DNA of 64,000 bases from the NCBI RefSeq assembly GCF_003018255.1, contig NZ_CP027440.1. One strand, written 5' to 3'. Positions 63,671 to 63,686 of the stretch are shown piece after piece. Source of the DNA: Escherichia coli (GTDB lineage: Bacteria; Pseudomonadota; Gammaproteobacteria; Enterobacterales; Enterobacteriaceae). A model generated the notes under the pieces. The model saw only the letters and a program-made list of their open reading frames with translations. It was not told the origin of the DNA and searched no databases. Positions within the stretch are counted from its first letter, which is position 1; each line of letters begins with the position of its first letter. A program made the position numbers and the translations under genes.

Positions 63671-63686
63671 CTGGTTATTTATACAG
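63671..63686 (-). promoter_or_regulatory. LexA (SOS) box upstream of dinI
   Basis: Minus strand reads CTGTATAAATAACCAG, matching CTGT-N8-ACAG, about 20 bp upstream of the dinI ATG. Confidence 0.8.

Follow-up and report, generated by a model that had tools for sequence, protein, structure and literature searches.

Between pyrC and dinI, the Escherichia coli DNA analyzed here carries a short palindrome that could be read in more than one way: as the operator through which LexA represses dinI, as a component of an RNA hairpin that the pyrC transcript forms at its 3′ end, or as a chance resemblance to the LexA consensus. We asked which of these readings holds for the palindrome, using a window of 64,000 nucleotides (the whole stretch of DNA that was analyzed) together with related loci from other genomes and prophages.

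The dinI locus and its LexA box

The dinI coding sequence (81 amino acids plus stop codon) occupies positions 63404–63649 on the minus strand and was assigned by its Pfam match and its identity to K-12 DinI. The open reading frame covers profile positions 1–63 of 63 of Pfam PF06183 (E=2.1e-29, 102 bits, cut-off 24.2), and the encoded protein is identical to K-12 DinI and to the protein in PDB 1GHH/7YWA. The same frame is annotated as dinI in 5,400+ E. coli genomes. Upstream of it lies the 3′ end of pyrC (dihydroorotase; 63723–64000, minus strand), which runs off the window; solA, bssS, dinI, and pyrC follow one another in this order, each encoded by the minus strand. Because 501 bases around dinI are present in 5425 of 5426 complete E. 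coli genomes, where they are annotated as pyrC followed by dinI, and because of this gene order, the window can be placed in the E. coli chromosome. Downstream, dinI ends in an intrinsic terminator (63357–63382, minus strand) composed of GCCGGG-TCGC-CCCGGC and the T-run TTTTTTATTT. No separate terminator was found in the pyrC–dinI spacer.

Away from dinI, the window is collinear with E. coli strain 104 (98–99.5% identical), with two exceptions. At 31480–39679, the window has pgaDCBA and a ycdT-like gene beside a tRNA-Ser gene (39730–39814), whereas strain 104 has IS3 and a DUF2726 gene. At 57468–57471, between lpxL and mdtG, the window lacks a 5.5-kb recombinase/ISEc52 island of strain 104. 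Rfam matches at gathering level are located at 9007–9186, 31238–31431, 45413–45504, and 55598–55640; the matches in the window comprise two tandem naRNA4 (REP-derived) copies, Ysr251 antisense to the 3′ part of phoH, ES056, and ES036.

At 63671–63686, the minus strand reads the 16-mer CTGTATAAATAACCAG (plus strand, CTGGTTATTTATACAG), in exact agreement with the sequence and coordinates of the LexA box proposed in a first-pass annotation. The 16-mer is an imperfect palindrome of the form CTG-N10-CAG with an AT-rich center, as is typical of LexA boxes (consensus TACTGTATATATATACAGTA). Two flanking bases on each side extend it to the 20-mer AACTGTATAAATAACCAGTA (63669–63688, minus strand), which matches the consensus of 17 K-12 boxes at 16 of 20 positions. 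The ATG of dinI is located at 63649–63647, 21 nt from the 16-mer and 19 nt from the 20-mer. The box had been described as lying just upstream of dinI and as matching the SOS box consensus, and both statements are borne out: the frame that begins 21 nt downstream encodes DinI, and the LexA box published for K-12 dinI has the same 16 bases (PMC3009722 Table 4).

For scoring, we used the Berg–von Hippel heterology index (HI), in which a lower value means greater proximity to the consensus. The matrix was trained on 17 published K-12 LexA boxes (PMC3009722 Table 4), with dinI excluded (leave-one-out). By this measure, which the first-pass annotation had named as the way to check its claim, AACTGTATAAATAACCAGTA has an HI of 2.75 (5.22 when the same site is read on the opposite strand) and is the best site of the window, the second-best independent site across the 64 kb having an HI of 10.49. 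The value falls within the range of the 17 known K-12 boxes (0.6–12.8 by leave-one-out), and the K-12 dinI allele receives an HI of 4.95, in agreement with the published 4.8. When the window was shuffled 200 times with dinucleotide frequencies preserved, the mean of the best HI was 11.3 and the lowest value 6.84; an HI ≤5 occurred in none of the 200 shuffles. A loose pattern, CTGT-N8-ACAG with one mismatch allowed, occurs 21 times in the window against 17.5 expected; this is chance level, and the pattern was therefore dropped as a test in favor of the full matrix. The two next-ranked LexA-like sites, one inside the rutF coding sequence (15384–15403, HI 10.5) and one inside the putA coding sequence (24027–24046, HI 10.7), have scores no different from those of the best sites in shuffled sequence and were rejected as operators.

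The nearest known counterpart is the dinI box of K-12 MG1655 (ACCTGTATAAATAACCAGTA, upstream of b1061), which represents the same locus and shares the 16-mer core, the 19-nt distance to the ATG, the promoter region, and the DinI protein. Over the 161 bases compared, the sole difference is an A in place of C at 63687, immediately 5′ of CTG. The boxes of istR/tisB (TACTGTATAAATAAACAGTA), hokE, recN, and umuD share with the dinI box the left half CTGTATAAAT, a low HI, and the overlap with the promoter core. They differ from it in the right half, which reads ACAG instead of the CCAG of dinI, and in the genes that they control.

Conservation across species and prophages

We scanned one genome per species for relatives of DinI and obtained 80 loci from Enterobacteriaceae, with protein identities of 73–99%. 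A LexA box with an HI ≤ 5.8 is found upstream of dinI in all 80 species, and in all of them pyrC is the immediate upstream neighbor on the same strand. The distance between box and ATG is 18–21 nt in 76 species, 65 of which have precisely the 19 nt of the window. The remaining 4 species keep both the −35 element and the box and carry an insertion between box and ATG. Buttiauxella gaviniae and B. brennerae have a ∼126-bp ERIC-like element in the dinI 5′ UTR, between the LexA box and the Shine–Dalgarno sequence, which puts the box 145 nt from the ATG. Two Trabulsiella species have a ∼43-nt insertion at the same place.

An alignment of 75 distinct orthologous dinI upstream sequences resolves this conservation base by base. 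The motif CTGTATA..CAG and the TTG of the −35 element are invariant, the 17-nt spacing to TATAAA is free of gaps, and ACAGGGGG in the Shine–Dalgarno region is nearly invariant, whereas the bases between the −35 element and the box vary freely.

The box is also kept by dinI homologues of prophages, which share ∼50–55% protein identity. Among 77 such loci, 72 have a box with an HI ≤ 4.5 at 14–22 nt from the ATG, although their flanks are otherwise unrelated; control windows of 120 nt from the same loci give a median best HI of ∼21. Two IMG/VR prophage contigs (L028 and L029) present a separate case. The sequence just upstream of their dinI match appears to encode a DinI-like C terminus (...EESDQWLVSDN*), which suggests tandem dinI-like genes that share one upstream promoter. 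Such an arrangement would explain why a box is missing right before the second gene.

Considering its matrix score, its identity to the K-12 core, and its conservation, CTGTATAAATAACCAG (63671–63686, minus strand) is almost certainly the operator through which LexA acts on the chromosomal dinI promoter in E. coli.

Overlap with a predicted promoter and SOS control

The LexA box overlaps a predicted σ70 promoter. Reading upstream from dinI, the sequence offers a Shine–Dalgarno motif, AGGGGG, 5 nt before the ATG (63655–63660), a putative transcription start in the right half of the box (63670–63672, placed 6–8 nt after the −10 element), a predicted −10 hexamer, TATAAA, inside the box (63678–63683), and a predicted −35 hexamer, TTGTCA (63701–63706), all on the minus strand. 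The −35 and −10 hexamers are separated by a 17-nt spacer, and the TATAA of the latter is (nearly) invariant. The box is thus situated in the predicted core promoter, where it contains both the predicted −10 element and the predicted +1. In Klebsiella, the mapped dinI transcription start likewise overlaps the LexA box (PMC10907235). A consensus promoter scan of the window does not list the minus-strand promoter of dinI, because the scan requires a T at the sixth −10 position, where this promoter has an A. Two plus-strand hits of the scan were disregarded, since they occur at chance frequency (2 found versus 1.5 expected). From the positions of −35, −10, and +1, themselves read from the sequence, we infer a steric mechanism of repression.

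In the standard SOS model, LexA bound over the −10/+1 region excludes RNA polymerase, and RecA filaments formed on damaged DNA trigger the self-cleavage of LexA. The original in vitro study of LexA binding is reportedly that of Lewis et al. in 1994, and a ChIP-chip study of E. coli LexA is said to have been made by Wade et al. in 2005. Applied to the window, the model predicts that a LexA dimer on CTGTATAAATAACCAG would cover the TATAAA hexamer together with the predicted transcription start and would bar RNA polymerase from the dinI promoter as long as the DNA is undamaged. Once damage occurs, RecA filaments would induce LexA to cleave itself, and the operator would be emptied. The freed promoter would then give rise to a dinI mRNA of ∼310 nt that ends at the terminator at 63357–63382. 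DinI in turn would bind in the groove of the RecA filament, where it has been located (PMC9926225), and thereby modulate the SOS response.

Published data agree with LexA control of dinI. In K-12, AZT induces dinI 49-fold, an induction that is 39-fold lexA-dependent and relies on cleavable LexA (PMC11228462), and the gene is also induced by UV (PMC3009722). In Salmonella, where the box lies 19 nt before the start codon, nalidixic acid induces dinI 22.8-fold (PMC8072944). ChIP detected LexA on the dinI promoter of Klebsiella, and this occupancy falls after treatment with mitomycin C (PMC10907235). The 19-nt distance is common to Klebsiella pneumoniae and to both the chromosomal and the Gifsy-1/2/3 prophage dinI of Salmonella enterica. 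The boxes of these genes have HI values of 3.9–5.3 and are accompanied by strong induction upon DNA damage, but they differ from the window in the sequence of the box center. The dinI mRNA of Klebsiella is additionally the source of the DinR sRNA, which derives from a 3′ stretch specific to Klebsiella and absent from E. coli. A DinR-like sRNA at the 3′ end of E. coli dinI was considered and rejected, since the stretch that pairs with ftsZ is reported to be Klebsiella-specific.

The base that distinguishes the window from K-12, at 63687 (minus strand), corresponds to position 2 of the 20-mer. Most E. coli, K-12 included, have a C there, whereas the window has the consensus base A, which is found in 13 of the 17 training boxes. 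Depending on the allele, the HI is 2.75 (A, window), 4.95 (C, K-12), or 5.8 (GC variant). The exact 57-mer around the A allele is present in 204 of 5384 complete E. coli genomes; the sampled E. coli genomes otherwise read ACCTGT or GCCTGT with an invariant core, and AACTGT is the form seen most often in other genera. From its matrix score, the A allele is predicted to have a higher affinity for LexA than the K-12 allele.

A hairpin in the pyrC–dinI spacer

The box is enclosed by a second element. When the whole spacer (63650–63722, minus strand, ∼73 nt) is folded as RNA, it forms a hairpin of −26.7 kcal/mol (z=−6.8) around the LexA box. The outer stem pairs a 5′ arm, GUAGCUUCCUGUUG (63717–63704), which overlaps the −35 element and the sequence upstream of it, with a 3′ arm, CAACAGGGGGCUAU (63664–63651), which contains the Shine–Dalgarno sequence of dinI.

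The outer stem recurs across species, as judged by counts of defined structures, by folding each sequence separately, and by comparing duplexes of cognate and permuted arms. Among the 75 spacers, 66 fold with z < −3 (median −4.27), and in 66 the G-run of the Shine–Dalgarno sequence finds its pairing partner upstream of the box. The core pairs GCCCCCUGU/ACAGGGGGC are present in 70–97% of sequences. Cognate arms pair better than permuted partners by 1.2 kcal/mol, a difference reached in 0 of 5000 permutations of a test that ignores phylogeny, and a single lineage with the Shine–Dalgarno variant GGAGG has a matching GCCUC upstream. Most pairs of the outer stem, however, do not covary, and both arms are also constrained by their promoter and ribosome-binding functions. 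RNAalifold, run on the alignment of the 75 upstream sequences, does not predict the long-range stem and returns only 2 trivial pairs. An inner stem, GGUUAUUU/AAAUAACC, which uses half of the LexA box, was rejected as a general feature: it is paired in 46% of cells and is restricted to E. coli and close relatives.

The spacer also varies within E. coli. In strain EC416 (locus L088, NZ_AP027404.1, 50–130), the left arm of the spacer quasi-palindrome has been converted so that it copies the right arm perfectly (CCCCCTGTTGAATATACTGGTTATTT), and the −35 hexamer TTGTCA is replaced as a result. The variant, which looks like a templated quasi-palindrome correction, occurs in 6 of 5349 genomes.

Could the main role of the palindrome then lie in an RNA hairpin at the pyrC 3′ end, a terminator or stabilizer whose resemblance to a LexA box is secondary? 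The strength of the spacer fold would fit such a role, as would the contribution of the box to the inner stem in E. coli, the constant presence of pyrC as the upstream neighbor, and a spacer without a terminator of its own. Yet the inner stem that contains the box is unconserved while the box itself is invariant, and the upstream regions of prophage dinI keep the LexA palindrome without pyrC and without a strong fold (median z only −1.07). No U-tract follows the hairpin, which therefore is no canonical terminator. We consider it very unlikely that the hairpin is the main function of the palindrome, although the RNA-hairpin and operator roles are not mutually exclusive. Less probable still is that an AT-rich intergenic spacer happens to match CTG-N10-CAG by chance and that the 16-mer has no operator function: the loose pattern does occur as often as expected, but the full-matrix score lies far beyond the shuffled distribution, the induction of dinI is LexA-dependent, and the conservation of sequence and position in every species examined, and of the box in prophage paralogues with unrelated flanks, effectively refutes this reading.

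Within this hairpin, the LexA operator is an already known element, a textbook SOS operator, and its confirmation adds no new biology. The outer stem differs in this respect, as our literature search for a terminator or hairpin between pyrC and dinI returned nothing relevant and no published description. In the Term-seq dataset consulted, the only end listed is internal to pyrC, and no 3′ end falls in the pyrC–dinI spacer. We tentatively propose, while regarding it as less probable than the contrary, that the hairpin silences the translation of dinI on transcripts that read through from pyrC, and that it may protect the 3′ end of the pyrC mRNA. In a read-through pyrC RNA, the Shine–Dalgarno sequence ACAGGGGGC in the 3′ arm would be paired with GCCCCCUGU, located at or just upstream of the −35 element, and DinI translation would remain silent. 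Transcripts from the dinI promoter, by comparison, would begin within the LexA box; devoid of the 5′ arm, they would be translatable.

As this case shows, real operators can be recognized from raw sequence by a first-stage reader. If the A allele at 63687 does bind LexA more tightly, it could shift the timing or the noise of dinI induction. If the proposed function of the hairpin is correct, the hairpin would insulate dinI, a tightly repressed SOS gene, from the metabolic gene upstream, which lacks its own terminator.
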